Both the position numbers and the translations under genes were made by a program. From NCBI GenBank assembly GCA_965365795.1, contig CBDUDB010000002.1:1-45266 (forward strand): DNA of 45,266 nucleotides. Direction: 5' to 3'. This DNA comes from an uncultured bacterium (GTDB lineage Bacteria; Krumholzibacteriota; Krumholzibacteriia; LZORAL124-64-63). Below, piece by piece: positions 3,223-30,748 of this stretch (position 1 is its first letter; every line of letters starts with the position of its first letter). The notes beneath the pieces are model-generated. The model did no database searches, was not told the DNA's origin, and saw nothing but the letters and a program-made list of their open reading frames with translations.

Positions 3223-3594
3223 TCAGTTTCTGGCGGTCGTCCTGGCGTCCACCAGATCCCGCACCGTGTCCAGTAGCACGGTAACGTCCGACGACTTCGT
3301 CACGTAGGCATCTGCGGCCCAGGTCAGATAGTTGTCCTTGTAACTGGAGTAGGCCGTGTTCAAAACGACCGGAACCGTGTTATCCCGTTCCAGAATGCGC
3401 TGCAGGGCCTCGATGCCGTCCATGCCCGCCATCCTGATGTCCAGGATGACCAGATCCGGCTTCATGGTCTCCACGAATTCAAGACCCTGGGCCGCATTAC
3501 AGGCGGTCATCGTCTCGAACCCTGCGCGACGCAGTTCCGTTTCATACAGAAGTCTGAGATGGGGTTCGTCATCGACAATCAATACTTTACTCAC
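3223..3594 (-). CDS. Single-domain response regulator (REC only, CheY-like)
   Basis: LIVDDEP..., DLVILDIRMAGMDG, VVLNTAY and the conserved-Lys region are present, with no output domain. I trimmed the start to the in-frame GTG at 3594, preceded by AGGAGG at a 6-nt spacing. The longer listed ORF (to 3807) has a non-protein-like N-terminus. Confidence 0.85.
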   Translation of the reverse strand: MSKVLIVDDEPHLRLLYETELRRAGFETMTACNAAQGLEFVETMKPDLVILDIRMAGMDGIEALQRILERDNTVPVVLNTAYSSYKDNYLTWAADAYVTKSSDVTVLLDTVRDLVDARTTARN

Positions 3595-3694
3595 AACCGG
3601 CCTCCTTTGCCCGCCTCCAGATGTGTGGGCATCTGGAAATCCCGTCCCTGGAATTATCTTAGTCCTTTCACCAGCAAGCCGCCACCCGACCATA

Positions 3695-5485: not shown

Positions 5486-5512
5486 TTCACACTCCTATCA
5501 AGATGGCCTCGT

Positions 5513-6982
5513 TCAAACCGGGCCTGCACGGCGCACCGCACGGTAAAGTTTTTCGTACTTGGCCGCCGACCTGGACCAGCCGAAATCGCATTTCATCCCC
5601 CGCGCCTGCAGACGGCGCCAGGCCGGCTGGTTTTCCCACAGGGTTTCGGCCCGGCGCAGGGCGGCCATGAGATCCTCGCTGGTGGCCTCATCAAAGACGA
5701 CCCCGTTGCCGTTGCGGCGCACGGCGTCGATGACGGTGTCGGCCAGGCCGCCGGTCTTCCTGACCACCGGCAAGGTACCGTAGCGCAGGGCATAAATCTG
5801 GGACAGGCCACAGGGCTCGAACACACTGGGCATGAGGAACAGATCGCTGCCGGCGTAGATGCGATGGGCCAGGGATTCGTCGAAGGCCCCGATAAAAGCC
5901 ACCTTGTCCGGGTGCCGGGTCGCAGCCTTGGCGGCCGCCGCTTCCAGCGTCTTGTCCCCGGTGCCCAGCAACGCGAAGGTGAAACCGTCTTCAGCCAAAC
6001 GGCCCAGCAAAGGCAGGACCAGGTCCAGCCCTTTCTGGGGAACCAACCGGCCCACGAACCCGCACAACGGTTTGCCGTCTTCCGGCTTCAGACCCAGCTC
6101 TTTCATGAGTTCTGACCGACAGGTCTGTTTGCCCGACAGGTCGGCAGGGCCGAAGGACGCCGGCAAGGCCGGATCCTTCAAAGGATCCCAGGTGGTGTAA
6201 TCGGTCCCGTTCAGGATGCCCGAATAGGAATCGCCCCGACCACCCAGAATCCCTTCCAGCCCACAGCCAAAGACCGGATCCTCGGTGGTTTCGACGGCAT
6301 AGGTCGGGCTGACCGTGTTAACCCTGTCCGCGGCCAGGATTCCCGCTTTCAGGAGATTGATGTGGCCGTGGAACTCCAGCAGCCCCGGATAGGAAGCCAT
6401 GGAGCGCGGCAATCCCAGCGTGTCGATTCCCTCAACCGGATGCACGTCCTGATGGGCCAGGTTGTGGATGGTCAGCAGACTTCCGGCCGGTCCAGGCACG
6501 CCGCGGCCGGCATACCAATGGCGCCGGTACAGAAGGGCCGGCGCCGCCTCGGCGTCGTGGGCATGGATCACGTCCACGGGCCAATCCAGCAGACGGGGTA
6601 ACATCAGCGCGGCCTGTCCGTGCATCGCCGCCCGAGCCAGGGAGTCGGAAAAAACTTCTCCCTGATCGTCGACATAGATACCTTCCCGCCCGAACAGCGA
6701 GGGGCACTCGACCAGGTAGATTTTCACCTTGGCCCTGGGTGATCCCAGCATATGGAAACGAACGTCGTGCATTTCCTGCCCCACGCGCATCACCAATGGC
6801 GGCAGTTTTTTCACCGGGCTGATTTTTTCCACCTTGCGGTTCAGATGACCGTACAAGGGCATCACCACCCGGACATCGTGTTTGCGGGCAGCCATGGCCC
6901 CGGCCAAAGAGGTGACCACGTCAGCCAGCCCTCCGACCTTGGCGAAAGGCGCCATCTCCGCGCTGATCATCAGGATGTTCAC
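5513..6982 (-). CDS. glgA: Glycogen synthase (ADP-glucose type, GT5)
   Basis: N-terminal ILMISAEMAPFAKVGGLADVV signature and C-terminal LMPSVFEPCGLSQIYALRYGTLPVV. I prefer GTG at 6982 (GGGAGGGA just upstream, 1 nt after the galT stop) over the listed ATG at 7018. Confidence 0.9.
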   Translation of the reverse strand: MNILMISAEMAPFAKVGGLADVVTSLAGAMAARKHDVRVVMPLYGHLNRKVEKISPVKKLPPLVMRVGQEMHDVRFHMLGSPRAKVKIYLVECPSLFGREGIYVDDQGEVFSDSLARAAMHGQAALMLPRLLDWPVDVIHAHDAEAAPALLYRRHWYAGRGVPGPAGSLLTIHNLAHQDVHPVEGIDTLGLPRSMASYPGLLEFHGHINLLKAGILAADRVNTVSPTYAVETTEDPVFGCGLEGILGGRGDSYSGILNGTDYTTWDPLKDPALPASFGPADLSGKQTCRSELMKELGLKPEDGKPLCGFVGRLVPQKGLDLVLPLLGRLAEDGFTFALLGTGDKTLEAAAAKAATRHPDKVAFIGAFDESLAHRIYAGSDLFLMPSVFEPCGLSQIYALRYGTLPVVRKTGGLADTVIDAVRRNGNGVVFDEATSEDLMAALRRAETLWENQPAWRRLQARGMKCDFGWSRSAAKYEKLYRAVRRAGPV

Positions 6983-6983
6983 T

Positions 6984-8057
6984 TCAGGATCCCTCCCCGC
7001 GCAACCGCTGCGCCGCATCTTCGGGTATCACCGAATTGATGGTGAATCCCGTTCCCACCTCGAGGCCGGCCGGCCGGCTCAGCCGGGGCATGATTTCCAG
7101 GTGCCAATGAAAACTATCGCGAACCGAGTATGCCAGATCATCCAGCCTTTCGTCACCGTACAACTCGCCGCTAACCGGAGCCAAGGGCGCACTGTGGATG
7201 ACCAGGTTCAAGGAGGGATCGCCGTGAATAGCGTTCAACCGACGCAGGGAAAAGGCCAGCACCGGGGCCAGGGCGGCCAGATCCTCATCGTCAGCCTGGA
7301 CCAAATCGGCCTGGTGCCTGGTCGGAACCAGGAGCATCTCCCAGGGAAAGCGGCTGGCCCAGGGAGTCAGGCACAACCAACGATCGTTGCCGCGAACCAC
7401 CCTGCCGCCGGATTTTTTTTCGGCCGCCGCCAGGTCGCATAAAAGACATCGGCCGGTGCGGTCGCGGTATTGGGCGAACCGGACCGCTTTGTCCACCACA
7501 ATCGGCGGCAGTTCGGGCGTGCCGATGATCTGCATGTGAGGATGAGCCAGGGTGGCCCCCGCCTCGGGGCCGTGATTGCAGAAGGGCGAAACATACCTGT
7601 GCCCCGGCCGCCGGGAAAAAACTTCCGCCCGGTCCCGCAATACCTGGAGCAGTTCGAGCAACCGCGATTCATCGAGGGAAGCCAGACCATCGGCATGGTT
7701 TGGTGAATAGACGATTACCTCGTGGGATCCGACTCCAGGCCTTTCGGGAAAAAGGCCCGTGGATGTCCCGGAGGGCCGGACCTCGAGAGTGGACGCATCG
7801 ACTTCCGGCCGCAGGGCGGGATACATGTTGGGAAAAACCCTCAAACGCCACCCGGGCCCGTTGGGAGCTGCACCAGATTCCCGGCCGAGGGCCAGGATTT
7901 CCCCGGTGGTGCTGGATTCGTGGCCGGGACAGAAGGGACAGTGCGCCCCCGGGGCCAGGTCCCTCTGCATGAGGCGAAATTCATTGGGGCGGCCGCTGCG
8001 GCCGGCTGCCATGATCACCCAGCGACCCGTCAATGGATCCTGACGAAGCGTCGACAT
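6984..8057 (-). CDS. galT: Galactose-1-phosphate uridylyltransferase-family (HIT superfamily) nucleotidyltransferase
   Basis: Zinc knuckle CPFCPGHE and the active-site HPHMQI (HxHxQ) motif. Tandem half-barrel organisation. First gene of the glycogen operon. The true substrate could be ADP-glucose rather than UDP-hexose. Confidence 0.8.
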   Translation of the reverse strand: MSTLRQDPLTGRWVIMAAGRSGRPNEFRLMQRDLAPGAHCPFCPGHESSTTGEILALGRESGAAPNGPGWRLRVFPNMYPALRPEVDASTLEVRPSGTSTGLFPERPGVGSHEVIVYSPNHADGLASLDESRLLELLQVLRDRAEVFSRRPGHRYVSPFCNHGPEAGATLAHPHMQIIGTPELPPIVVDKAVRFAQYRDRTGRCLLCDLAAAEKKSGGRVVRGNDRWLCLTPWASRFPWEMLLVPTRHQADLVQADDEDLAALAPVLAFSLRRLNAIHGDPSLNLVIHSAPLAPVSGELYGDERLDDLAYSVRDSFHWHLEIMPRLSRPAGLEVGTGFTINSVIPEDAAQRLRGEGS

Positions 8058-8284: not shown

Positions 8285-9178
8285 TTATGTGGCCCCAAGG
8301 GCCAATCGCGGCAGACCGCCCCCCTCTTCCAAACGGTCCACATACTGACTCAAGGTCTCGAAATCCCCCATTTCCAGGATCTTGGCCAACTTCTTGGGCA
8401 TCGTGGCCTGCCCCCCCTGGCTGCGCCAGCTGGTCATCGCCGATTGCCCCGCCTGGGGCCGGAAATCATCCATTTCCCAGGGGTGGGTGTAAACCAGGCA
8501 GCCGACTCCCTGGCGCCGCGCACTGGCGCGAAGGGCCTTAAAAACCGTCCAGGGCATCAGTCGCAGATACCCCCCTCCGGAGAACGGCACATTGACCCCG
8601 AGAAACCGCCAGGTCGGCATGGGCACGACCGTAAAGGGCGGGCCGTCGCCTTCCAGCCTGAAGGGACGGCGGGGCGAATCCGGCTGGCCATAGCGGGGAT
8701 GGTGGATGGGGAAGATGGAACAATCGTAACGGAACCCGCAGTCACGCAGGATATCCAGATACCCGTGCACCGACGGGGTGATGCTGAAACTCGGCGCCCG
8801 GTAACCGGCGGGCGAGGTCACGCCGGCGGTGGCCAGCGCTTCGAGGGCCCGGTCGCAGTCGGCGCGGAACTGGTCGGGCGTCAGTTTGAAGATCTCCGGG
8901 TGGGCGTAGCTGTGACAGCCCACCTCGTGGCCGTGGCGCACGATCTCGCGCACCACATCGGGATGCCGCTCGGCCGTCCACCCCAGAACAAAAAAAGTTC
9001 CTTTCACACCGTGTGCATCCAGCAGATCCAGACACCGGGCCATGCCCTTTTCGACCCGCTGCTCCTGGTCGTCCCAGACCTCGGGCGGAACCCGATCGAG
9101 ATAGTTGTGTCCGTGGAACCACTCCTCCACATCCACGGTGATGATGTCACGGGGCACGGCGGAAACAGTTGGGACCAT
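8285..9178 (-). CDS. Polysaccharide deacetylase family protein (NodB fold with DUF3473-like C-terminal extension, as in exopolysaccharide / PEP-CTERM-type loci)
   Basis: ITVDVEEWFH, GTFFVLGW..ERHPD and GHEVGCHSYAHP motifs (the Asp and His metal-binding set of NodB deacetylases). Confidence 0.82.
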   Translation of the reverse strand: MVPTVSAVPRDIITVDVEEWFHGHNYLDRVPPEVWDDQEQRVEKGMARCLDLLDAHGVKGTFFVLGWTAERHPDVVREIVRHGHEVGCHSYAHPEIFKLTPDQFRADCDRALEALATAGVTSPAGYRAPSFSITPSVHGYLDILRDCGFRYDCSIFPIHHPRYGQPDSPRRPFRLEGDGPPFTVVPMPTWRFLGVNVPFSGGGYLRLMPWTVFKALRASARRQGVGCLVYTHPWEMDDFRPQAGQSAMTSWRSQGGQATMPKKLAKILEMGDFETLSQYVDRLEEGGGLPRLALGAT

Positions 9179-9181
9179 CGA

Positions 9182-9871
9182 TCACTCCCCCGGCCGCCCG
9201 GCCCGGGCCAGGCAAGCGAATTGAAGGTATTGCATGTCGGACCATCGGCGGAAGGTCAGTAGGTTGACCAGACGGAACTTCAGTGAGCCCGTCGGATTGA
9301 TGCCTGCCATGGTTTCGACGGTGAATCCGCATTCGTCCATCAGGCGGATCATGCTCGACCGGGTGAAAAACCGAAGATGGGTGCGGTCGAGAATTCCCTC
9401 GTCAGTGTAGTCCCAGCGTCCGTGGACGGCCAGATCGACCACATTGAAAAAATACCGCACGTTGGGAAGGGAGGCGACCAGGAAGCCGCCGGGTTTCAAC
9501 AGCGGCCGCAGGGAACCGATCAGAGACACGGGGTCAACAACGTGTTCGATCACGTCGTTCAAAACCAGGCAGTCGAAGTGACCGGCCGGCAGATCGGAAC
9601 AGACTTTCGCGACATCTCCCTGCAGAACCCGGTCCAGAACCGCGGCGGCCTTGGCTGCGGCAACCGGGTCCATCTCCACCCCCCACACTTCGACGGGCGA
9701 CCCCACCTGGGCCCGCGTCTTCTTGAGATGGTCCGCAAAAGCGCCTTCTCCACACCCCACCTCCAGGAAAACGGTGGCCTCGGCGGGGATGAAGTCGAGC
9801 ATCTCGTGCCGCTGGTTTCGGAAATATTCAGACAGTGCGGTCTCCCTCAGCAGGATCTTTTCCGGGCACAA
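9182..9871 (-). CDS. Class I SAM-dependent methyltransferase
   Basis: Motif I VFLEVGCGEGAF and post-I/II CLVLNDVIEHV. 3 nt upstream of the deacetylase gene. TTG start at 9871, with an alternative ATG 69 nt downstream. Confidence 0.78.
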   Translation of the reverse strand: MCPEKILLRETALSEYFRNQRHEMLDFIPAEATVFLEVGCGEGAFADHLKKTRAQVGSPVEVWGVEMDPVAAAKAAAVLDRVLQGDVAKVCSDLPAGHFDCLVLNDVIEHVVDPVSLIGSLRPLLKPGGFLVASLPNVRYFFNVVDLAVHGRWDYTDEGILDRTHLRFFTRSSMIRLMDECGFTVETMAGINPTGSLKFRLVNLLTFRRWSDMQYLQFACLARAGRPGE

Positions 9872-9913: not shown

Positions 9914-11995
9914 TTAGACCATATCCTGAATTCTCCTCAGATCCGACGGGCTTCCCATGACCAGCATCTGGTCATCATCACCGAATTCAAACTGTCCATC
10001 CGGCACCCGCCCGACAATTTCGGCTCCCCCGTCCCGCTTTTGCTTGACCAGCAGCACCGTAACTCCGTAGCTGTTGCGCAGATCCAATCCCGCACAATTG
10101 CGCCCCAGGAAGGCCGCGGGAACCGGGATTTCAGCTAAACTCAGGCCCGACACCCCCGGCATGGGGGTGAAACGCCCGACATCTTCCATGGATGTAACCA
10201 TACTCGAGGCCGTCTCGCGCTTGAACATTTCGTTGTTGTACTGCTGGATGACATCCTGCACCTGGATCGCGCCAACCAGAATGCCTTCGGCGACCACGGG
10301 AACCTCGTATTGATAAAGGCCCAATTGACGAATGACTTTGTCCAACTGGTCTTCCGGTCTAACCACAGGGAAACCCTTGGATTGCATAATGTCATAAGCC
10401 ATGATGGCCTGCCCGGCCTGGTGGGTCATCCCGAGGTAGGGCCGCAAATCATCGAAATTGACAACCCCCTCCAACCTGTCCCCGGCTCCAATGACAAAAA
10501 TAGAGTTGTGTCGGTTGGTCATGAACAGGGAAAGCAATTCGAACAGATTCGCCTCTGAACTTACCTTGCCCTCGGGTTCACACATCACTTCGCTGGCCTG
10601 CAGGTGACTCAGCACATTCAAGCTGCGACCTTTGTAGAGATCCAACCCGCGGCGCAACAACTTCTTGGTGTAGATGGAGGCGCTTGTGATCCTCGAGGCC
10701 AGCATGGTGGCAATCACACACGAGATCATTAGTGGCAGGATGATTTTGTAGTCGCCCGTCAACTCGAAAATGATCATGAAGGCCGTCAAGGGCGCATGGG
10801 TCGTCGCTGCGACCACCGCACCAGCTCCCACAAGAGCGTAGGCACCCGAAGAGGCGGTAGCGGAAGGCCAGATGTTGTGAACCACCGTACCCAGTCCACC
10901 CCCGGTCATGGCTCCTATCATTAGCGATGGAGCAAAAATCCCTCCTGAGCCTCCCGACCCTATCGTGATGGCGACAGCCACGATCTTGACCAAGGCCAGC
11001 AGAAGCAAGGTCTGCAGTACAAGGTCTTCGTGCAGGGCCATCTCTATGGCCTCGTACCCTACCCCCATGATTTCCGGAAAACGCAGCGCCATCAAACCGA
11101 TCAGGAGGCCCCCGATGACCGTTTGCACGACACTTGGGATCCTGGCCAGGGGGCCCTCGAAAAAATCCTCCGCGGCATACAGGACCTTGACGAACAACAG
11201 CCCCACCAGACCGGCGATAACCCCAAGCAACCCGTAGAGGCCCAATTCCCATGAACTGACCAGGGAGTATTTAGGGATCAAAAAGGCAGGCAGATCCGCA
11301 AAGAAATGGTGACTGACCACCGTTGCTGCCACCGAAGAGATCACAATGGGGGTCAGCTGGGACGGGGCGAAGTCCCCCAGAATCACTTCGGCGGAAAACA
11401 GGACCCCGGCGATGGGCGCATTGAAGGTGGCGGCAATGCCTGCTGCCGCGCCACATCCCACCAGGGTACGAAGACGGCGCTCTCCCAGATGCATCAACTG
11501 CCCGATGGCTGAGCCAAGGGCCGACCCGATCTGCACAATGGGGCCCTCACGCCCCACCGAGCCTCCGGTTCCAATGCAAATACCGGAAGCGACCATTTTC
11601 GCCAGCACAACCCGCGCCCTTATCCGCCCCCCGCGCAGCATGACAGCTTCCATTACCTCCGGGACCCCGTGTCCCTTGGCTTCCCGTGCGAAAAAGTGGA
11701 TGATTATACCTACGAGAAGACCGCCGGCAGCCGGAATGAGAATCAATTGCCAGGGAGGATGGCTGCGAAGACCGTCCAGGGTAAAAGCCGGCATCTGCCA
11801 GGCCTGGACCTGCACCAATTGAATGAATTTTCGAAATCCGACCGCACAGAGACCGCCCAAAAGTCCCACCAAAACGGCCAAGAGGACCATCAAAGTGTGA
11901 TAGGACTCCAGAAATCGGAATCGGATACGACTTGTATTCAGCAGCTGGTTAATATTCATGGGGGGAATATCCGGAACGGGACGGCGGAATGCCAT
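9914..11995 (-). CDS. ClC-family chloride channel / H+-Cl- antiporter with C-terminal CBS pair and RCK_C (TrkA_C)-like domain
   Basis: Selectivity-filter motifs GSVGREGP and GGSGGIFAPS. About 10 or more hydrophobic helices. The C-terminal tail is CBS-like, then ...GVTVLLVKQKRDGGAEIV...GDDDQMLVMG. Start trimmed to ATG 11995 (AAGGAAA upstream). Confidence 0.88.
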   Translation of the reverse strand: MAFRRPVPDIPPMNINQLLNTSRIRFRFLESYHTLMVLLAVLVGLLGGLCAVGFRKFIQLVQVQAWQMPAFTLDGLRSHPPWQLILIPAAGGLLVGIIIHFFAREAKGHGVPEVMEAVMLRGGRIRARVVLAKMVASGICIGTGGSVGREGPIVQIGSALGSAIGQLMHLGERRLRTLVGCGAAAGIAATFNAPIAGVLFSAEVILGDFAPSQLTPIVISSVAATVVSHHFFADLPAFLIPKYSLVSSWELGLYGLLGVIAGLVGLLFVKVLYAAEDFFEGPLARIPSVVQTVIGGLLIGLMALRFPEIMGVGYEAIEMALHEDLVLQTLLLLALVKIVAVAITIGSGGSGGIFAPSLMIGAMTGGGLGTVVHNIWPSATASSGAYALVGAGAVVAATTHAPLTAFMIIFELTGDYKIILPLMISCVIATMLASRITSASIYTKKLLRRGLDLYKGRSLNVLSHLQASEVMCEPEGKVSSEANLFELLSLFMTNRHNSIFVIGAGDRLEGVVNFDDLRPYLGMTHQAGQAIMAYDIMQSKGFPVVRPEDQLDKVIRQLGLYQYEVPVVAEGILVGAIQVQDVIQQYNNEMFKRETASSMVTSMEDVGRFTPMPGVSGLSLAEIPVPAAFLGRNCAGLDLRNSYGVTVLLVKQKRDGGAEIVGRVPDGQFEFGDDDQMLVMGSPSDLRRIQDMV

Positions 11996-12100
11996 ATAAA
12001 TTTCCTTGGATTGGCCCCCAAATTTGCCCACGTGGAGATGCGGAACTCCCTGGGAATCCAACGAATGCAGGATCCCACAATCGCCCTCTGGGACCGGGAT

Positions 12101-12703
12101 TTATTTCCGCCCCTTTGGATTGAAGACCGCCTTCATCGTTTGGCAAACCAATACGAACACATCCGTTAGCCGAAGAACCCCGACAATTTCCTTGCTGTTT
12201 TCCCCTGTTACCAGCAACGAATGATGATGACCCATCAGAAGGCGGTGTATGGCATTCTGCAGAGAAGCGTCGACAGGGATGTACTCTCCCTCCGTGGGGG
12301 TGTACATGAAATCTGCAACTCTTTGTCCTCCCGCTGCCGTGCAAAGTTGGTCCAATGGCAGATTCCAACAATCGTTCTCTTTGAGGAGGAACTCGATATA
12401 GCTGTTGCTGATGCCAAACCGGGAAAGATGGGCTTCACCCAGTTTGTCGCCGAAATCCGGCTCAAGGGCTTTGATGATGTCCATCTGGCTCAGCTTGCCA
12501 ATGATGTGATTGTCTTTGTCGAAAACGAGGAGTGCTCGGTGCCTATAGGGGGTCGACTCAAATTCCGCCCGGGCTTCCTCCAGCGAAAGGATAGCCTCGT
12601 ACAAGGTGGCGTCCTGCGGAACTGTGGCGTATTCGGCCAGGGGAACCATCAAATCCTTTACAGCGATGTCTTTCATCTTGATCTTCTCTTTCCGGCTCAC
12701 CAT
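12101..12703 (-). CDS. Stand-alone CBS-pair domain protein
   Basis: Two CBS-like repeats (VKDLMVP...TVPQDATLYEA...; VADFMYTP...VDASLQNA...VGVLRLTDV). ATG 12703 overlaps the upstream regulator stop (ATGGTGA). An alternative ATG at 12676 gives MKDIAVKDLM. Confidence 0.78.
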   Translation of the reverse strand: MVSRKEKIKMKDIAVKDLMVPLAEYATVPQDATLYEAILSLEEARAEFESTPYRHRALLVFDKDNHIIGKLSQMDIIKALEPDFGDKLGEAHLSRFGISNSYIEFLLKENDCWNLPLDQLCTAAGGQRVADFMYTPTEGEYIPVDASLQNAIHRLLMGHHHSLLVTGENSKEIVGVLRLTDVFVLVCQTMKAVFNPKGRK

Positions 12704-13128
12704 CCCTTTTTCTTGAGGATGTCTTCAATGGCCTGGGCCGATCGTTTTTCCAGAAGCACCATCCGTTGGTCCGCAGCGTCGCCGATCAGACTCGTCAGGG
12801 CCTGGATATCCACGGGCTTTTCCAGGAACTCCGTGGCTCCCGTCTTTATCGCCTCGATCCCCTTGGAGACCGTAGCGTGGCCGGTAAGAATGATCACCTG
12901 CTGGTCAGCGTCCTCGGACAGCAGTCGTTTCAGGGTCTCGATACCGTCCATGCCCGGCATCTGCAGATCCAGAATCACAGCGTCGAAACGGTGAGCATCC
13001 ACGAGTTCCAGCGCCTCGGAACCGTTGGACGCCGTATACACTTCCATTTCCCGCAACTGCAGCCGTTCGGAGAGCGTCTCAGTGAATTCCGTTTCGTCGT
13101 CGACGAGCAGCACTTTCGCTTTTGCCAT
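12697..13128 (-). CDS. Single-domain response regulator (REC plus short helical tail)
   Basis: VLLVDDETEF, AVILDLQMPGMDG, VIILTGH, ATEFLEKP. Start trimmed to ATG 13128, preceded by GAAAGGAAAGG. No output domain. Confidence 0.85.
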   Translation of the reverse strand: MAKAKVLLVDDETEFTETLSERLQLREMEVYTASNGSEALELVDAHRFDAVILDLQMPGMDGIETLKRLLSEDADQQVIILTGHATVSKGIEAIKTGATEFLEKPVDIQALTSLIGDAADQRMVLLEKRSAQAIEDILKKKGW

Positions 13129-13144
13129 TTCTACACCTTTCCTT

Positions 13145-13822
13145 TCATGCAGAGACTTCCGGACCGGTGGGCAGGTTAATTTTGATCGCAAACCCGGCAT
13201 CGTTCCGTTCGATGGCCACCCTTCCTGCCAGTCGGACGACGATTCCCGACAGTTTCTCGAATTCCTCCCGTGACTCGATATCGTCGCCCCCGGAAACACA
13301 GGAAACCAGAATGTTAACACTATTGTCGTCCGGGCGTATCACAAGCTCGAGGGTTGGCGAGGGCTCCGCCGCAGCCAACACCAGCTCCCAACTGCAAAAC
13401 AGGGCTCGTTGCACCAGAAACCCGTTGCAGAGGATCGGCACCTCACTTTCAGGTGCCGTGTAGGTGAGCGTCGCCCCCCGGCGCTCTAGCAGCCGGCAGG
13501 TCAGGACGGACAGATTGTCGACCGTTTCCCGAAGATCCAGTACCCGCACCCCTTCCTCCACGCTGTGGGAAAACCGGTTCATGTGCGAAATGAGTTCCTT
13601 CCCGCGCACGGCATTCAGATCGATTTTCCCGGAGATCTGCTCCACCTTCTCCACCGGAAGGGGACGGCCGCGTTCGGCGAGTTGGACCAGGTCCCCCAAC
13701 AACCCGGAAAGTTCGCTGATGATGGTAATGACGTTGTTGAATTCGTGCGACACGTTCGCCATGATCCTGCCGAAGAACTGCAGGTCCGCCTGGAGAAGAC
13801 GTTCCCGCCCCCCGGTGTCCAT
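13145..13822 (-). CDS. Soluble histidine-kinase-like protein with an intact H-box but degenerate ATP-binding boxes (candidate His-phosphotransferase, ChpT/Spo0B-like)
   Basis: H-box ANVSHEFNNVITII in a DHp-like helix. The CA-like C-terminal domain has no recognisable N-box Asn or G1/G2 boxes (FLVQRALFCSWELVLAAAEP, VSCVSGGDDIES). The start overlaps the upstream REC stop (TGATG). Confidence 0.55.
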   Translation of the reverse strand: MDTGGRERLLQADLQFFGRIMANVSHEFNNVITIISELSGLLGDLVQLAERGRPLPVEKVEQISGKIDLNAVRGKELISHMNRFSHSVEEGVRVLDLRETVDNLSVLTCRLLERRGATLTYTAPESEVPILCNGFLVQRALFCSWELVLAAAEPSPTLELVIRPDDNSVNILVSCVSGGDDIESREEFEKLSGIVVRLAGRVAIERNDAGFAIKINLPTGPEVSA

Positions 13823-14208
13823 CAGTTTTCACCTCTTCGGTTGGCCGTGATGGCGTCCTCCATTTTGACGATGAGATCCTCCAGGTTGATTGGCTTGAGC
13901 AGATAGTCGGTCGCCCCGGCCTGGATACCATCTCTGCTGGATTCGGGCGACATATGGCCCGTCAACAGGATGACCGGCAATTCGGGCCGGAGCTTCTTGA
14001 TGAGTTTCATCACCTCGATACCGTCCTCCCCCTTAAGCTTCACATCCTGCACCACGACGCCAAATTCTTGTTCCCTGATCTTCGCGAGGGCCTGCTCGCC
14101 TGTCTGGACCCCGACCGTCTCGATCCCACGGAATTCAAGTCTCTCCACGAGGGTTGACAACAGGTCGTCCTCGTCATCGACGATCAAAACTCGGAAATGC
14201 TCACGCAT
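13822..14208 (-). CDS. Single-domain response regulator (REC only)
   Basis: VLIVDDEDD, VVVQDVKLKGEDG, VILLTGH, ATDYLLKP. The start overlaps the kinase stop by 8 nt (ATGCGTGA). Confidence 0.85.
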   Translation of the reverse strand: MREHFRVLIVDDEDDLLSTLVERLEFRGIETVGVQTGEQALAKIREQEFGVVVQDVKLKGEDGIEVMKLIKKLRPELPVILLTGHMSPESSRDGIQAGATDYLLKPINLEDLIVKMEDAITANRRGEN

Positions 14209-15928
14209 GGGTTGGCTCCTGCAGAGTGGGTTGACCGGCTGGCAGATTTATCGTGAAACGCGTTCCTTTCCCGACTTCGGATTCAACCTCGATGGTACCT
14301 TTGAGTTTCTTGACGATACCATATGTTATTGAAAGACCGAGCCCGGTTCCGTGGGATTTTTTCGTGGTGAAGAAAGGCTCGAAAATATTCTCCAAATTGG
14401 CTTGGGAGATTCCGATGCCGTCGTCCTCGATCGTCACCGACACCCGCCCCGGTTTCAGGCCTCTGATGTCGATCCGCAGGCAACCGCCCTTCTCCATGGC
14501 GTCGAAGGCGTTGTTGATCAGATTCAGGAAAAGTTGCTGCATCTGTCCCTGGTCACTATGCACCGTGGGCAACGAATCCGCGACTGTCATCTCTATCCGA
14601 ATATCCCTGAAGATGGCCTCCTTTTCCAGGAATCCAAGGACTTCCCTGATCAGCTTGTCGATCACGATGGGCTCGTGCTTGGTATCCATGTGCCGGGCGA
14701 AGCCGAGAAGGCGGTGCGTGATTTCGCTGCACCGGGTGACCGACTTGATAATACTGCCGGTCTGCTGGAGCAGTTTTTCCTTCTGTGGCGTACCCGGCGA
14801 TGACCCCAAGATGTCGGTGATCAATCCCGCCTTCTCGTTGATGATCGCCAGAGGATTGTTGATCTCGTGGGCGACACCCGCCGCCAGACGCCCGATCGAA
14901 GCCATGCGGTTGGTGTGCTCGACATTGTGGAGGGTCGCTTCCCGATGAAGATCGGATTCCTTAAGCCGGTGCACCCAGCCCGTAGTGATCCACATGATGA
15001 TCAGCAGGATAGCCACGATGCTGACAACCAGGAATGCCAGCATTTCCCCTTGGTAGAGCAACCACCCGGACATCAGTTTCTTCTGCCCGACCAGAATCAC
15101 GAATATGAACGGGGAACCTTCGATGGCTGCCGATCCCATGAAGTAGGCCTGGCCCTCGATCCCTACCTCGTCCACCAGCACCATGTGGTCGCTGTGAGCG
15201 GGAACCTCGAGAGGAAAACTTTCAAGGGCTTCACCGAAAAGTTTTGATGGTGTCTGCAGCCGACCGGACCGGTTGATCAGGAAAGCATCGAAATTGCGGG
15301 TGGGCCCGGCTATCTGGATCTGGCGGATGATGCCTTCGGTATCGATCGTGGAGCGGAATATCAGGGATCGACCGCCGGTGCCGCTCCGGTTGACGGCGAT
15401 GATGAAGTGGGGCAAGTTCCTGTGGCCCAGAAATACGTCACTGACGAACACGTCACGCTGAACCGCCTGGTTGAACCAGTCCTGGTCCCTGTCGCTCTTG
15501 CCGTCCAGGTCGTATGGGCCCGCGTAGGCCCGCATGACCCCATCGCGGTCCACGACTCCGATGTCGATGATGCCACCGAACGAATCGGTCATCCTTTCCA
15601 GGATGCCCTCCAGCACCTCTGGATCGTAAAGATCCTCCGCCTGTTCTCGGGAGACGATGTACTGGGCGGCCGCGATCCGTTCTTCAAGGAAGGATTCCAG
15701 GTAACGCTTGGTGATGGCCGCGATCCGTTCGATGGGCTGGGTGATCTCATGGCGGAAAGACCGATGGTACATGTAATAATTGACACTGGTAATCGTGAGC
15801 AAAGGCACCAGGCTGACCGCCGCAACCGCGAGCACCGTGTTGCGCCACATCCGCCGGTAGCGGGACAGGTATCCGGTTCCGTCCGCAGACGTGTCTATGA
15901 AAATGAATTTCTGAAAAAAACCGCCCAA
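14201..15928 (-). CDS. Membrane sensor histidine kinase with periplasmic Cache-like domain
   Basis: Two TM segments (NTVLAVAAVSLVPLLTITSV; LAFLVVSIVAILLIIMWITTGWV) flank a loop of about 250 aa. H-box AAGVAHEINNPLAII. NLINNAFDA, DDGIGI, GTGLGLS. The listed start is TTG 15928, with an alternative ATG at 15850. Confidence 0.87.
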   Translation of the reverse strand: MGGFFQKFIFIDTSADGTGYLSRYRRMWRNTVLAVAAVSLVPLLTITSVNYYMYHRSFRHEITQPIERIAAITKRYLESFLEERIAAAQYIVSREQAEDLYDPEVLEGILERMTDSFGGIIDIGVVDRDGVMRAYAGPYDLDGKSDRDQDWFNQAVQRDVFVSDVFLGHRNLPHFIIAVNRSGTGGRSLIFRSTIDTEGIIRQIQIAGPTRNFDAFLINRSGRLQTPSKLFGEALESFPLEVPAHSDHMVLVDEVGIEGQAYFMGSAAIEGSPFIFVILVGQKKLMSGWLLYQGEMLAFLVVSIVAILLIIMWITTGWVHRLKESDLHREATLHNVEHTNRMASIGRLAAGVAHEINNPLAIINEKAGLITDILGSSPGTPQKEKLLQQTGSIIKSVTRCSEITHRLLGFARHMDTKHEPIVIDKLIREVLGFLEKEAIFRDIRIEMTVADSLPTVHSDQGQMQQLFLNLINNAFDAMEKGGCLRIDIRGLKPGRVSVTIEDDGIGISQANLENIFEPFFTTKKSHGTGLGLSITYGIVKKLKGTIEVESEVGKGTRFTINLPAGQPTLQEPTHA

Positions 15929-15963: not shown

Positions 15964-17181
15964 TCAGTCGTTCTCGCCAAGCCCCTCCCCTGCGGCCTCT
16001 TTCGCGCGGCGCATGGTATCGGCGAGGACTTCAATGTCCACGGGTTTCTCCAGATAGGCAAAGGCGCCGAGTTCCAGGCAAAGGTCCCTGTCCTTTTGAT
16101 TGCCGTGACCGGTAAGAATGATGACTTTGACGTTCGGGTATTCCACAGAAGCACGCCTGAGAACCTCGATGCCGTCAATACCGGGCATCTTCAGATCCAG
16201 CACCATGACTTCCGGTTCCTCCTCCTCCATCAATGCCATCGCATCTTCGCCGCTGAAGACCACAGCCGGTTCGAGATCCCGCATTTCCAGACGTTCTGAA
16301 AGAGTCAACACGAAATCCCGTTCGTCGTCCACCAGAAGCACCTTTTCCGGCAACTCGAAATCGAAGGGGGTCAGGGCGGATACCGGCCGGTAGTTGGGAC
16401 CGGTCCGGACCTCGACGTCCCGAACACCGTCCAAGCCTTTCAACAGGGATTTCAGCTCGGTCTCCAGTTTGTCCAGCCGAATAACGTACTCATCGATGAC
16501 GACGGTTAGAACGTCCCGGCGACAAGAAAGGGAATGGTAGAATCCGGCCTCGATCATGGTCTGCTCGGCATGGGCCGCGGTCGCGAAATCCCGAAGAGCC
16601 TGTTTCGATTTCGCCGTCTGCTTCATCGGATCCCGGCCTGCGTATTCGACCACGAGTTCGGCCACCTCATCGACGCCCATCGTGTGTACCGGGATCTTCA
16701 GGTCATACAGGGTCGTATCCCAAGGCTGTTTGTCATAAATCTTACGGGTCCATTGGGCCCGTTTCAGATCCTCTTTCTGGATTCGGTGCAGTGCGGCTTC
16801 GAATTTGACCCCCTCTTCTTGGGCGAAAAGCTTGGCCCGCTGCTCTGGATCGTCAAGGAGGCAGACCCGCAACACATGTCCGATTTGCTGTGAGATAAGA
16901 TGAGAGGCGAACCCGGAGAGTATCTGGTTGTCGTCCAGCATATCGGCCAGTGTGGTCTTCAACTGGGCCAGATACTGCTCGCGGCGATGGGTGAACTTGT
17001 TGAAATGAAATGGCGGACCGGCCATGGCCCGCTCGAGCTTATCCCGCGGGGTGCCGAAACGTTCACCTGTCACTTCGAACAAGCGGTCTCCGATCAGCGG
17101 CCACCCGGTCATTTCACTGATCCTATTGGTGATATCCTCCGCCCGACAGAAGAAAGCACTGAATACCGAGATGATTGCCAT
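15964..17181 (-). CDS. Response regulator with N-terminal cytidylate-kinase-like (PF13189-type) domain lacking a P-loop, C-terminal REC
   Basis: The C-terminus is VLLVDDERDF, VMVLDLKMPGIDG, VIILTGHG, AFAYLEKP. The N-terminal region of about 190 aa is colinear with the cytidylate kinase-like family (…VLRVCLLDDPEQRAK…KEDLKRAQWTRKIYDKQPWDTTLYDLKI…). The Walker A position reads SVFSAFFCRAE. ATG 17181 is preferred (AAGGAG, 6-nt spacing). Confidence 0.72.
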   Translation of the reverse strand: MAIISVFSAFFCRAEDITNRISEMTGWPLIGDRLFEVTGERFGTPRDKLERAMAGPPFHFNKFTHRREQYLAQLKTTLADMLDDNQILSGFASHLISQQIGHVLRVCLLDDPEQRAKLFAQEEGVKFEAALHRIQKEDLKRAQWTRKIYDKQPWDTTLYDLKIPVHTMGVDEVAELVVEYAGRDPMKQTAKSKQALRDFATAAHAEQTMIEAGFYHSLSCRRDVLTVVIDEYVIRLDKLETELKSLLKGLDGVRDVEVRTGPNYRPVSALTPFDFELPEKVLLVDDERDFVLTLSERLEMRDLEPAVVFSGEDAMALMEEEEPEVMVLDLKMPGIDGIEVLRRASVEYPNVKVIILTGHGNQKDRDLCLELGAFAYLEKPVDIEVLADTMRRAKEAAGEGLGEND

Positions 17182-17255
17182 TATCAACTCCTTGACAATA
17201 TCATCCGTCCCAAAGAGAACATACCCATATTACCATTTTCTCGTTCCCTCGCCTA

Positions 17256-17264
17256 TGGTATAGT
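17256..17264 (+). promoter_or_regulatory. Candidate extended -10 promoter element (TGgTATAGT) for the SulP gene
   Basis: TGGTATAGT lies about 80 nt upstream of ATG 17345 in the AT-richer divergent intergenic region. No good -35 was seen. Confidence 0.3.
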
Positions 17265-17344
17265 ACCACAACAAATTACCAGATGCCATTTTCTTTGGCT
17301 TCACCTCTGCTGGGCGATGAGAATTTCGTTTGAGAGGCTAACTG

Positions 17345-19930
17345 ATGCTGTCCAGGATCTTCCCGTTTATTTCTTGGTCCCAGGGATATGATGCCGGCAA
17401 ATTTCGGGCGGATTTCATCGCCGGGTTGACCGTGGCTCTGGTTCTCATTCCCCAATCTATGGCCTACGCCCAACTCGCAGGCCTTCCTGCCTACTACGGT
17501 CTTTACGCTTCGTTCCTGCCGCCGATGGTGGCGGCCCTCTTCGGCTCAAGCCGGCAACTGGCCACCGGCCCGGTGGCCATTGTTTCCCTCATGACCGCCG
17601 CCACCCTGGAGCCCCTGGCAACCGCCGGCAGCGAAGCGTTCATCTCCTACGCCATATTCCTGGCCTTGCTGGTCGGCCTGTTCCAGCTTTCGCTCGGTGT
17701 GCTGCGCCTCGGCGTGGTCATCAACTTCCTGTCCCATCCAGTCGTGATCGGCTTCACAAACGCTGCCGCCATCATCATCGCCACCAGCCAGCTTTCGAAG
17801 ATGTTCGGCGTTTCCGTGGACAAGGCCGAACACAACTACCAAACCGTTTGGCGAGTGCTCGTTGCCGCCCACCAGTACACCCACTGGCCCACCTTCCTGC
17901 TGGGCGCGCTGGCCTTCGTCATTATGATCGTCCTGAAAAAGCTCAATCCCAGGATCCCCTGCGTGCTGGCCGCCGTCGTTGTGACAACACTCATTTCCCG
18001 CGTCATCGGGCTGGAGAACAACAAGCAGGCAGCCATCGACCAGGTGGAATCGCCAACGGTGCACGAGTTGATTCAAGTCTACAACCGGGATGTCCAGGCC
18101 ATCGCCCTGGTTTCGGAGGCGCGCGCTTATCTGGAACCGCATGTTGAAAAGATTGCCGATTCCCGGGACGGAGGCACCTGCATGGCCTGCCACACCAAGC
18201 AACAGGTGGACCTGGACATGTTGCGTGACGAAACGCTGGCGTCCACTTCCTTGGACGTAAATCCCATGACGGCTCTGAAACTGCACGCGATGGCCGGACT
18301 CCTGGACAAGGAGATCAGCCAAGTCAAGGAACTGGCGTCGGAATCCCGCATGGAGCTTCGTGCTCTGAATTTCTTTTTGCAAGAAGAAGACGGGACGTCA
18401 CGATTTGTCCCCGCGGAAGGGCCGACCGGTGGACACGGCATCTGGCGTCTGCAGGTCGGCAACCTGCCCCTCGACCTCGAGAATCTGGTCTTCCTCGGGG
18501 GCGGTGCCATTGTTGGAGCCGTTCCGAGGGGCCTGCCGCATCTGAGCGTTCCAGTGTGGAACATGTCGGTATTTAGAAAATTGTTCATGGCCTCAATCAT
18601 CATTTCGATCCTCGGCTTCATGGAGGCCATTTCCATCGCCAAGGCGATCGCTGCCCGAACCGGTCAACGGCTGGATCCCAACCAGGAATTAATCGGTCAG
18701 GGCATAGCCAACATCGTGGGTTCCTTCGGACAGAGCTACGCTGTTTCCGGGTCCTTTTCCCGCTCGGCCGTCAACATTCAGGCCGGAGCGGTCACCGGCT
18801 TCTCCAGCGTTTTCACCAGCGCCATCGTCGTGGTCGTTTTGCTTTTCTTCACGCCCTTGCTGTACTATCTGCCCCAATCCGTGCTGGCCGCCGTGATCAT
18901 GATGGCCGTCATCGGCCTCATCAATTTCAAGAGCGTCATACACGCCTACAAGGTCAAACGCAGCGACGGGGTCATCAGTGTCATTTCCTTTGTCGCCACT
19001 CTGGCCTTCGCACCTCATCTGGACAAAGGTATCCTGTTGGGCGTCGCACTGACGGTGGGAGTTTTCCTCTACGGCAGGATGAAGCCGGCCATCGCCGAAC
19101 TTTCGTTGGCGCGGGACGGGCATTTCCACAACGCCAGGCAACAGCGGCTGACCCAGTGCCGGTACCTGGCCATCATCCGGTTCGACGGTCCCCTGTTCTT
19201 CGCCAACGCAAGCTATCTCGAGGACGAGGTCCTCGACCGACTGCGGTCCTTGCCCGAACTTAAGGCCATCCTGTTCAAGTCCGACGGAATCAGCGAAATC
19301 GATGCCTCCGGCGAGGAAACCCTTTCATTGCTGATCGATCGACTCAGGTCCGGCGGCATCGACGTCTTTTTTTCCGGCCTCAACGAACGGGTGACCGACA
19401 CCCTGCACAGGAGTCATCTGTCGGAAAAGATCGGCAAGGACCACGTCTTCATGACTGTGACCCATGCCGTGGAGTCCATCTGGTCCAGAACGCACGAGGC
19501 TTCGAATGAAGAGGCTTGTCCGTTGATACACGTCGTGCCGACCGGAGAGCCGGCCATCGACTCGAAAATCAGAATCCTGATCGTGGATGACGAACAGGAT
19601 TTCGCCGACCTCTTGGCCTTGCGGCTGGACAAGCGCGGAATGAAAACCGATGTCGCCTATTCGGGCGATGAGGCTATGGAACATGTCCAGTCCGTGGCAT
19701 ACGACGCTGTTATTCTCGACATCAGGCTGGGTCGGGATGACGGTCTGGACTTCCTGCTCAAGTTTCGGGATCTGCGCCCCAACCTTGCCGTTATCATGCT
19801 GACCGGGGTGGGCTCCATTGAGTCCGCCGTCGAGGCCGTCAAACATGGGGCGTTTGATTTCATGTTGAAACCATGCAACATTGACGACTTGGAGGGTAAA
19901 ATCCGGGAAGCCTACAGGCTTGGGGTCTAG
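17345..19930 (+). CDS. SulP/SLC26-family anion transporter fused to STAS and a C-terminal receiver (REC) domain, with a ~165-aa insert after TM7
   Basis: SulP N-terminus (FIAGLTVALVLIPQSMAYAQLAGLPAYYGLYASF...GSSRQLATGP), core motif ELIGQGIANIVGSFGQSYAVSGSFSRSAVN, and STAS (YLAIIRFDGPLFFANASYLED...IDASGEETL). REC: RILIVDDEQDF, AVILDIRLGRDDG, VIMLTGVG, AFDFMLKP. Insert at aa ~222-385 contains C279-M-A-C-H283. Confidence 0.9.
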   Translation: MLSRIFPFISWSQGYDAGKFRADFIAGLTVALVLIPQSMAYAQLAGLPAYYGLYASFLPPMVAALFGSSRQLATGPVAIVSLMTAATLEPLATAGSEAFISYAIFLALLVGLFQLSLGVLRLGVVINFLSHPVVIGFTNAAAIIIATSQLSKMFGVSVDKAEHNYQTVWRVLVAAHQYTHWPTFLLGALAFVIMIVLKKLNPRIPCVLAAVVVTTLISRVIGLENNKQAAIDQVESPTVHELIQVYNRDVQAIALVSEARAYLEPHVEKIADSRDGGTCMACHTKQQVDLDMLRDETLASTSLDVNPMTALKLHAMAGLLDKEISQVKELASESRMELRALNFFLQEEDGTSRFVPAEGPTGGHGIWRLQVGNLPLDLENLVFLGGGAIVGAVPRGLPHLSVPVWNMSVFRKLFMASIIISILGFMEAISIAKAIAARTGQRLDPNQELIGQGIANIVGSFGQSYAVSGSFSRSAVNIQAGAVTGFSSVFTSAIVVVVLLFFTPLLYYLPQSVLAAVIMMAVIGLINFKSVIHAYKVKRSDGVISVISFVATLAFAPHLDKGILLGVALTVGVFLYGRMKPAIAELSLARDGHFHNARQQRLTQCRYLAIIRFDGPLFFANASYLEDEVLDRLRSLPELKAILFKSDGISEIDASGEETLSLLIDRLRSGGIDVFFSGLNERVTDTLHRSHLSEKIGKDHVFMTVTHAVESIWSRTHEASNEEACPLIHVVPTGEPAIDSKIRILIVDDEQDFADLLALRLDKRGMKTDVAYSGDEAMEHVQSVAYDAVILDIRLGRDDGLDFLLKFRDLRPNLAVIMLTGVGSIESAVEAVKHGAFDFMLKPCNIDDLEGKIREAYRLGV

Positions 19931-30621: not shown

Positions 30622-30748
30622 GTAACATTTCTCCAGATGATCCGTCATTCCACCTGAGTCCGCTTGGTGATTTCATTCTAACATCGCCGTTCCGACGGGA
30701 ACATCCTCAATTTGTTTCCCGCAACCAGCTATTTCTGATCAGGAAGGA

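Follow-up and report, generated by a model that had tools for sequence, protein, structure and literature searches.

A conserved, probable multi-receiver phosphotransfer module with a predicted ATP-blind kinase-fold protein, encoded beside sulfate-type anion transporters in uncultured bacteria

Introduction

Dimeric phosphotransferases derived from histidine kinases are known from a few lineage-restricted examples (Spo0B, ChpT, and PhyT) and are hard to find by sequence. Spo0B, a dimeric four-helix-bundle His-phosphotransferase, keeps an H-(D/E)-x-x-N box, and ChpT is likewise dimeric and shuttles phosphate among receivers, feeding more than one of them, including a single-domain receiver. Here, we describe a candidate protein of this kind, psHK, a soluble kinase-fold protein of 225 amino acids (aa), together with the genes around it. 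It is encoded in a stretch of 45,266 nucleotides (nt), hereafter the window, that makes up positions 1 to 45,266 of contig CBDUDB010000002.1 (assembly GCA_965365795.1) from an uncultured bacterium of the Krumholzibacteriota.

Two further systems bear closely on this locus. In the Pak-SdrG-PhyT-PhyR pathway of Sphingomonas, PhyT, a protein with a degenerate ATPase domain, is phosphorylated by a single-domain receiver and hands the phosphate onward (PMC5898713). PhyT was first taken for a phosphatase because of that degenerate domain, then proved to be a phosphotransferase, and is possibly bifunctional (PMC5898713). The RedCDEF system of Myxococcus xanthus consists of a membrane kinase, a receiver protein, a small soluble kinase-like protein, and a single-domain receiver; the kinase-like protein, RedE, does not autophosphorylate but is phosphorylated by the receiver, and none of the Red components has a DNA-binding output domain (PMC2755868).

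Signaling genes have also been reported beside sulfate transporters. In Desulfobacteraceae sulfate reducers, a 2025 study described DASS/SulP clusters with Cache-domain kinases, response regulators, CBS proteins, and fusions of a receiver (REC) domain to CBS domains, proposing sulfate as the common ligand and transcription, through WalR-type regulators, as the process under control (PMC11887813). That anaerobes regulate both high- and low-affinity sulfate uptake rapidly has been on record for decades (PMC5840216).

Results

Six genes make up a compact multi-receiver locus

In the reading that we favor, to which we assign a probability of a little under 60%, this region represents a conserved module for phosphotransfer among several receivers, working as a relay or hub and dedicated to anion, probably sulfate, transporters. 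The following six genes form the module in the window:

17345..19930, plus strand: SulP-family anion transporter with C-terminal STAS and REC domains (SulP-REC), divergent from the operon; candidate direct target
15964..17187, minus strand: cytidylate-kinase-like protein with a middle domain and a REC domain (kinase-like/REC), first gene of the operon; candidate output
14201..15928, minus strand: membrane sensor histidine kinase, two predicted transmembrane (TM) segments around dCache_1, then HisKA and a complete HATPase_c
13822..14208, minus strand: REC1, single-domain receiver (Response_reg only, 1.5e-26)
13145..13822, minus strand: psHK, soluble 225-aa kinase-fold protein with a dimerization and histidine phosphotransfer (DHp) hairpin and a degenerate domain like the catalytic and ATP-binding (CA) domain of kinases; candidate His-phosphotransferase/phosphatase
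12697..13128, minus strand: REC2, single-domain receiver (Response_reg only, 1.4e-30)

These assignments come from Pfam, where SulP-REC matched Sulfate_transp (2.5e-107), STAS (1.2e-14), and Response_reg (8.6e-26), with an additional NCBIfam match to sulP (9.4e-137). Kinase-like/REC matched Cytidylate_kin2 (1e-17) and Response_reg (2e-25), and the sensor kinase matched dCache_1 (2e-11), HisKA (1.6e-8), and HATPase_c (7.3e-28), its TM segments being read from the translation. The genes are closely packed: the end of the kinase gene shares 8 nt with the beginning of REC1 (ATGCGTGA), the stop of REC1 shares 1 nt with the start of psHK (TGATG), and a gap of 16 nt separates psHK from REC2. Of 49 non-redundant related loci, 32 have the stop-start overlap between REC1 and psHK, and the gene order is conserved across phyla, so the linkage is more than chance. 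An earlier reading of the window, made from its letters and open reading frames (ORFs) and hereafter called the sequence-only reading, had reported the coordinates of the four ORFs from the kinase to REC2 along with their overlaps, gap, and motifs, and had named a CBS protein, a ClC channel, a kinase-like/REC fusion, and a SulP-REC transporter as neighbors. Re-reading the sequence and ORFs reproduced the former, and Pfam bore out the latter, giving a CBS pair, ClC-CBS-TrkA_C, Cytidylate_kin2-REC, and, on the other strand, SulP-STAS-REC.

psHK has the fold of a kinase core but has lost the ATP-binding motifs

We modeled psHK with AlphaFold2 from 34 homologues (mean predicted local distance difference test score, pLDDT, of 91.4). 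In the model, a DHp hairpin (helices 3-50 and 57-90) is followed by an alpha/beta domain; there is no hydrophobic N-terminal segment, the chain starting about 25 residues before the His. Foldseek searches of the PDB with this model returned the DHp-CA cores of the kinases HK853, ZraS, SrrB, CusS, and DivL (E about 1e-12). A psHK family profile compared with all PDB sequences matched ThkA, LvrB, ZraS, CckA, and RetS, with no ChpT or Spo0B chain among these matches, and a PDB sequence search with psHK itself returned no Spo0B chain. The structural check against ChpT and Spo0B that the sequence-only reading had proposed for this protein has thus yielded a kinase-core fold and no sequence match to either.

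Against Pfam, psHK gave zero hits at E<=0.01 and, up to E<=10, HisKA alone (E=0.037), with neither an Hpt nor a Spo0B-family hit. HATPase_c was likewise absent from the Pfam results of every family member tested. psHK is not a monomeric HPt domain, since its fold is a DHp hairpin plus an alpha/beta domain and not a single four-helix bundle.

The sequence-only reading had noted a clean H-box and no N, G1, or G2 box in the 225-aa protein, and profile comparison confirmed this and extended the list of losses. The H-box ANVSHEFNNVITII is present in psHK (SHEFNN box), and when 100 psHK family members were aligned profile to profile with the DHp-CA region of their cognate kinases (hhalign; full length, probability 99.85), the box was kept, reading VAHEINNPL in the kinase and VSHEFNNVI in psHK. 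The N-box Asn residues of the kinase, on the other hand, become Ser, Leu, or Val in psHK, the G1 motif DxGxG falls in a gap, and a 15-residue deletion spans the F-box, the ATP lid, and G2.

Conservation within the family follows the same division. In 100 diverse members (25-66% identity), H26, N30, and D44 are invariant (100/100), residue 27 is Glu in 95% and Asp in the remainder (100% for Glu and Asp together), and H86 is 99% conserved; the His is also at least 95% conserved among 154 aligned members. The mean majority-residue frequency in the 100 members is 0.62 for the DHp hairpin vs 0.36 for the CA-like domain, in which no conserved polar residue and no conserved Asn or Gly column was found. 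Because the modeled fold, the motif loss, and the invariant His box hold across the family, the prediction that psHK, a kinase-fold protein, is blind to ATP yet keeps its phospho-acceptor site intact is well supported family-wide. From the same motif losses, psHK is predicted to be unable to autophosphorylate.

psHK belongs to a large family from uncultured bacteria

A word-indexed search found 61 close relatives of psHK, all about 220-230 aa long, while an exhaustive profile search found at least 851 psHK clusters (50% identity, E<=1e-30), nearly all of 210-240 aa and matching over their full length. Two relatives, P0116 and P0196, are REC-psHK fusions whose receiver domain is N-terminal, and one of them lies in a kinase / REC-psHK / REC / SulP context. 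The named sources are metagenome-assembled genomes (MAGs) of Acidobacteriota, Myxococcota, Zixibacteria, and CSSED10-310, as well as one labelled Fibrobacteraceae, and no cultured organism appears among the psHK matches listed. Existing annotations are generic ("hypothetical protein," "HAMP domain-containing histidine kinase," or "C4-dicarboxylate-specific histidine kinase"), and no Pfam model covers the family. Neither the psHK family nor the six-gene module has been described.

psHK resembles its neighbor kinase at the receiver-docking surface

Most of the receiver-specificity residues of a histidine kinase are carried by the DHp helix below the His. Across 46 loci, this helix is almost identical in the kinase (GVAHEINNPLAIINEKAGLI) and in psHK (SISHEI(K/N)NVLAIINE.AGLL); the kinase Pro at H+5 is always Val in psHK, and helix 2 differs too, with FSH in place of FAR. 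When the psHK family profile was compared with the kinases of the window, the cognate kinase scored 88 bits and the other two scored 36 and 19 bits. Given the near-identical helices and this difference in score, psHK appears to be a degenerate paralogue of the kinase encoded next to it and, by sequence, should dock the same receivers. All module receiver classes have in common the alpha-1 pattern DDE.(D/E)(F/L)..TL.ERL.

The same likeness could instead mean that psHK and the kinase form a heterodimer through their similar DHp helices, with psHK acting as a regulatory or dominant-negative subunit or offering a second His to be phosphorylated in trans by the CA domain of the kinase. Such pairing would fit the status of psHK as the closest paralogue of its cognate kinase, the nearly superimposable helix-1 sequences around the His, and the finding that the two genes are always co-encoded (31/31 loci). 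However, the pair that is most tightly coupled, and sometimes fused, is REC1-psHK and not kinase-psHK, and the H+5 and helix-2 differences separate the two proteins consistently. To our knowledge, stable DHp heterodimers that pair a kinase with a pseudokinase in this way are without precedent, and we consider this explanation highly improbable.

The module is conserved beside sulfate-type transporters across phyla

About 90 loci share the module order; their sources are Acidobacteriota, Myxococcota, Zixibacteria, and other MAGs. The subclade to which the window belongs (10 distinct loci from Myxococcota, Acidobacteriota, and other MAGs) has one strict gene order, in which SulP-STAS-REC is divergent from kinase-like/REC, the dCache kinase, REC1, psHK, and REC2. 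Identity to the window proteins within this subclade is 70-85% for REC2, 65-78% for SulP-STAS-REC, 62-77% for the kinase, 55-72% for REC1, 53-76% for kinase-like/REC, and 38-68% for psHK.

For the wider family, we annotated 79 non-redundant metagenome loci with the window domains as queries and counted those with enough flank for each position. A kinase lies upstream of psHK in every such locus (31/31), a kinase-like/REC gene lies upstream in 22/23, and a SulP-STAS gene lies upstream in 17/19, here on the same strand as the module and without a receiver domain. A receiver follows psHK in 44/47 loci and directly precedes it in 43/61. The survey of gene order that the sequence-only reading had called for thus disposes of its own caveat that synteny might be lacking. 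The proposed string of kinase, REC, psHK, and REC stood, but the conserved unit also takes in the kinase-like/REC gene and the transporter.

Three further features adjoin the six genes in the window:

17188..17344, no strand: divergent intergenic region, the sole sizeable non-coding gap of the module; probable promoters of both transcription units
12101..12703, minus strand: CBS-pair protein (Pfam CBS, 8.8e-14, two stretches); frequent, not universal, module member
9914..12061, minus strand: ClC channel/antiporter with CBS and TrkA_C (Pfam Voltage_CLC, 4.9e-108), downstream on the same strand; membership uncertain

The first ATG of the CBS ORF (12703) overlaps the REC2 stop (ATGGTGA), although translation could also begin at an in-frame ATG located 27 nt later. 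CBS orthologs follow REC2 in the acidobacterial loci and in L041, L048, L051, L071, L096, and L101, and CBS proteins and DASS (Na_sulph_symp) transporters are often found downstream of the module. In one locus, an H+-PPase, a CBS protein, and a DASS transporter replace SulP. A Hydrogenedentota locus (L103, CP070779.1) encodes at 8855-9796 a REC-CBS fusion beside a DASS fragment and a kinase-like/REC gene. The CBS part of this fusion is homologous to the window CBS protein (27% identity over 182 aa), so a receiver is linked to the CBS protein. ClC, on the other hand, was rejected as a conserved module member: it lies next to the module in this window and in no other of the 10 subclade loci or the wider-family loci, and the earlier suggestion of the ClC channel as a candidate output does not hold.

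In L101, the module is joined by a second dCache kinase, three receivers, and TauE. This additional group (3371-6417, minus strand) comprises a divergent dCache kinase, three single-domain receivers, and a TauE permease; it adjoins the psHK module, and no psHK is encoded within it.

No DNA-binding output is conserved with the module

Four receiver domains with intact acceptor sites surround psHK, and no module protein has a DNA-binding domain. In the roughly 30 loci whose flanks are long enough to judge, DNA-binding receiver proteins are not conserved as neighbors. The sequence-only reading had seen no DNA-binding output nearby and had allowed that homologues might always lie beside a DNA-binding regulator; the first point holds, and the second was not borne out. 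Promoter and terminator scans of the region gave counts at chance level. Sigma-70-like matches occur on both strands at 17171-17204, in a region whose whole count is no better than chance, and a search for sigma-54 -24/-12 elements was at chance level overall, with no match in the intergenic region (17188-17344).

The output could still be transcriptional, with an unlinked DNA-binding regulator as terminal acceptor or with the cytidylate-kinase-like domain binding a nucleotide messenger or nucleic acid. In that case, the module would lie near transporters because their expression is co-regulated, which is what has been proposed for sulfate reducers. The Cache-kinase and regulator genes of the DASS/SulP clusters in Desulfobacteraceae are indeed read as transcriptional control of sulfate uptake (PMC11887813), the only PDB relatives of the Cytidylate_kin2 domain are uncharacterized, and L063, L066/L090, and L098 have an additional classical kinase/regulator pair within 1-2 kb. 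These pairs, however, are unrelated to the module, no DNA-binding receiver protein is conserved over the loci surveyed, and the intergenic region has no sigma-54 promoter. Moreover, a receiver is fused to the transporter in the window subclade and to a CBS pair elsewhere, which argues for targets at the protein level, and we judge a transcriptional output improbable.

Receivers, kinase-like/REC, and transporter retain distinctive conserved features

The dCache kinase is complete, with N, G1, F, and G2 boxes visible in the alignment. In REC1, REC2, kinase-like/REC, and SulP-REC, the acidic pair, acceptor Asp, Thr/Ser, aromatic switch residue, and Lys-Pro are all present, and the acceptor sites of all four are also conserved in orthologs. 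REC1 has the acceptor Asp, Thr, and Lys together with a conserved D-[VI]-KLKGEDG, and REC2 has, throughout the subclade, a conserved 25-aa C-terminal tail beyond the receiver fold (...SAQAIEDILKKKGW; ...ERSAQAIEDILKKKGW) that ends in KKKGW and may be a docking peptide.

Three ways of sorting the receivers further were tried and set aside. The FATGUY motif and Y/F switch residue (PMC9981736), considered as a test of intermediary vs terminal receivers, failed to separate them, as all four have LTG(H/V) and an aromatic residue at K-3. Positions D+2 and T+2, assessed by eye as a proxy for phosphoryl stability, show Lys at D+2 in REC1 and kinase-like/REC alike. Pairwise receiver identities gave no origin for the SulP-REC receiver, all classes being about equidistant (38-47%).

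Among the receiver proteins that the module conserves, kinase-like/REC alone has several domains; it belongs to a family of >5000 homologues of about 405-414 aa. The only Pfam family matched by its N-terminal domain, Cytidylate_kin2, is itself uncharacterized. In 43/43 aligned members, FSAxxC occupies the P-loop position and the Walker A motif GxxGxGK[ST] is absent, while the receiver domain is nearly invariant. The top Foldseek hits of the full AlphaFold2 model (pLDDT 88) were all to the receiver domain, and a PDB sequence search with the N-terminal domain found only the uncharacterized structural-genomics proteins 3fdi and 3hdt. Since Walker A is replaced family-wide and the PDB relatives are uncharacterized, kinase-like/REC is, judged by its motifs, a pseudo-enzyme-like receiver protein. 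A literature search for SulP-receiver fusions or cytidylate-kinase-like receivers found nothing specific.

The SulP protein of the window also has predicted TM7 and TM8 separated by an insertion of about 155 aa (nt about 18017-18500, about aa 225-385), predicted to be periplasmic from our own TM count on the 14-TM SLC26 model. It carries a CxxCH motif (CMACH) that is found in all 10 REC-bearing subclade orthologs and in L020, L024, and L041 and is absent from 15 SulP proteins of the wider clade. By its sequence, this motif could be a c-type haem or metal/redox site.

Other genes in the window

Outside the module, we observed a further kinase (3695-5485) and a receiver-only protein (3223-3807) at 3223-5485 on the minus strand, next to genes of glycogen type, namely those for a starch synthase-like protein (5513-7018), a nucleotidyl transferase (1905-3152), and a GalT-like protein (6984-8057). 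A hybrid kinase (HisKA-HATPase_c-REC) lies at 37738-39435 (minus strand), and a multihaem cytochrome c with c7/MtrC-like hits lies at 31799-33697 (plus strand). The plus-strand gene at 33840-35951 combines DinB_2, FGE-sulfatase, and methyltransferase domains, an architecture that we take to resemble that of the ovothiol synthase OvoA. A 944-aa ORF at 27814-30648 (minus strand) has a single, weak match, to the eukaryote-type Dpy19 C-mannosyltransferase family (E=2e-12).

Discussion

The most likely function of the module is that of a branched phosphorelay or phosphatase hub with a non-transcriptional output onto anion, probably sulfate, transport. Many uncultured sediment bacteria have the conserved module beside sulfate-type anion transporters, so its control of transport is probably direct and not exerted via gene expression. 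The post-translational control of anion transport that the sequence-only reading suggested has accordingly gained from the conserved SulP (17/19), DASS, TauE, and CBS neighbors, while the order of phosphate flow that it gave is only inferred.

In the mechanism that we propose, a periplasmic ligand, possibly the transported anion itself, would bind the sensor kinase, which would autophosphorylate and phosphorylate REC1. REC1~P could then pass its phosphoryl group to His26 of a dimeric psHK, and psHK would distribute phosphate to, or drain it from, REC2, kinase-like/REC, and SulP-REC. Output would be by protein-protein contact and not through DNA: SulP-REC might alter its own STAS/transport domain, REC2 might act with the CBS protein, and kinase-like/REC would act through a partner.

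The order of kinase, REC1, psHK, and REC2 in this scheme is a proposed one, and a RedE-like phosphatase or a bidirectional hub would fit equally well. Unorthodox kinases have their domains in the same order as the genes kinase-REC-psHK-REC. This likeness, the translational coupling and occasional fusion of REC1 and psHK, the His that is absolutely conserved in the aligned members, and the precedent of PhyT are our reasons for reading the module as a relay.

Several observations weigh against this relay or hub reading. The docking helices of kinase and psHK are near-identical and the receivers share their alpha-1 pattern, so the kinase could phosphorylate every receiver directly and psHK could be a phosphatase only; sequence alone does not tell which way phosphate flows. 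The box H-E-x-x-N is reportedly also the phosphatase motif of HisKA kinases, as described by Willett and Kirby in 2012. Gene order varies as well, with L074 and L087 having kinase, psHK, REC, and REC, and REC2 is missing in L102. In addition, the psHK relatives all come from uncultured organisms and the biochemical role is a predicted one, the substrates of SulP, DASS, and ClC are putative, and it is possible that a DNA-binding regulator is encoded elsewhere.

The strongest competing explanation takes up the first of these points: psHK would be mainly a dedicated phosphatase or phosphate sink like RedE, the kinase would phosphorylate the output receivers directly, and REC1 would feed or license psHK, which would then strip REC2, kinase-like/REC, and SulP-REC. 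Its case includes the Asn at H+4 in 100/100 members, which completes an invariant H-E-x-x-N matching the HisKA phosphatase motif, and docking helices so alike that kinase and psHK should bind the same receivers. RedE, soluble, non-autophosphorylating, and 242 aa long, itself takes phosphate from a receiver and dephosphorylates a terminal single-domain receiver. However, the motif does not discriminate, since the pure phosphotransferase Spo0B also has H-D-x-x-N, and PhyT was wrongly called a phosphatase by the same reasoning. HisKA phosphatase activity is not known to be strictly His-dependent, yet the His of psHK is invariant or nearly so in both of our alignments. We therefore regard a dedicated phosphatase as unlikely, though a serious contender, and retain the relay or hub reading.

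If the relay or hub reading is right, psHK is a candidate new phosphotransferase family that is large (at least 851 clusters) and has no Pfam model. The association with SulP/DASS and CBS proteins and the transporter-fused receiver suggest two-component signaling onto transport proteins, not DNA, and the module offers a concrete, testable candidate for the fast regulation of sulfate uptake in anaerobes. Should the receivers gate transporters directly, anaerobic sediment bacteria would have control of sulfate uptake on a scale of seconds. A still broader proposal is that psHK represents a third family of dimeric histidine phosphotransferases derived from kinases, one that is widespread and arose independently. 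Here, it would act within a non-transcriptional phosphorelay in which secondary anion transporters are gated directly by the terminal receivers (SulP-fused, partnered with or fused to a CBS pair, or carried on a kinase-like protein that lacks a P-loop). We put this forward tentatively, expecting that it will more probably fail than hold in its full form.

The sequence-only reading had called the arrangement one that it did not recognize as described. This is true of the protein family and the module, but the logic has precedents in ChpT, Spo0B, PhyT, and especially RedCDEF. ChpT, part of the Caulobacter CckA-ChpT-CtrA/CpdR pathway, is like psHK in being kinase-derived, with a phospho-His on its DHp hairpin and a CA-like domain that does not bind ATP, and its traffic with several receivers is the likeness that we propose for psHK. 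Although psHK has the ChpT-type fold feature of a DHp hairpin plus a CA-like domain without an ATP lid, there is no detectable sequence relationship between them (no Pfam hit, and no ChpT chain in the PDB profile search), and psHK, unlike ChpT, descends from its own HEINNPL-type neighbor kinase, as far as their sequences tell. ChpT is also fed by the receiver of a hybrid kinase, whereas the receiver upstream of psHK is a separate protein and no CtrA-like DNA-binding acceptor is present here.

With the KinA-Spo0F-Spo0B-Spo0A relay, the module shares the order of a kinase, a single-domain receiver, a phosphotransferase with a degenerate CA domain, and a receiver. psHK had no hit to Spo0B Pfam families or PDB entries, however, and Spo0A, the terminal acceptor of Spo0B, is a transcription factor, while all components of the window module are encoded in one operon beside transporters. 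PhyT differs from psHK in being membrane-anchored and in having an HRxxN box of the HWE/HisKA_2 type, psHK being soluble with HExxN, and PhyR drives a sigma-factor partner switch. As for the Desulfobacteraceae clusters, their published description mentions no ATP-blind kinase, no phosphorelay, and no cytidylate-kinase-like/REC protein (PMC11887813).

RedCDEF is the closest system in organization, and the window genes have the same four-component architecture without a DNA-binding output. RedE, with 242 aa and His24, is close in size and His position to psHK, with 225 aa and His26, but its HATPase_c is well conserved and its HisKA poorly so, and psHK shows the reverse. RedD is a dual receiver, whereas REC1 is a single-domain receiver, and the Red system is linked to development, not to transporters, with neither a cytidylate-kinase-like/REC nor a SulP partner. 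Altogether, the nearest functional relatives of psHK are ChpT, Spo0B, and PhyT, and it is a member of none of these families, nor of that of RedE.

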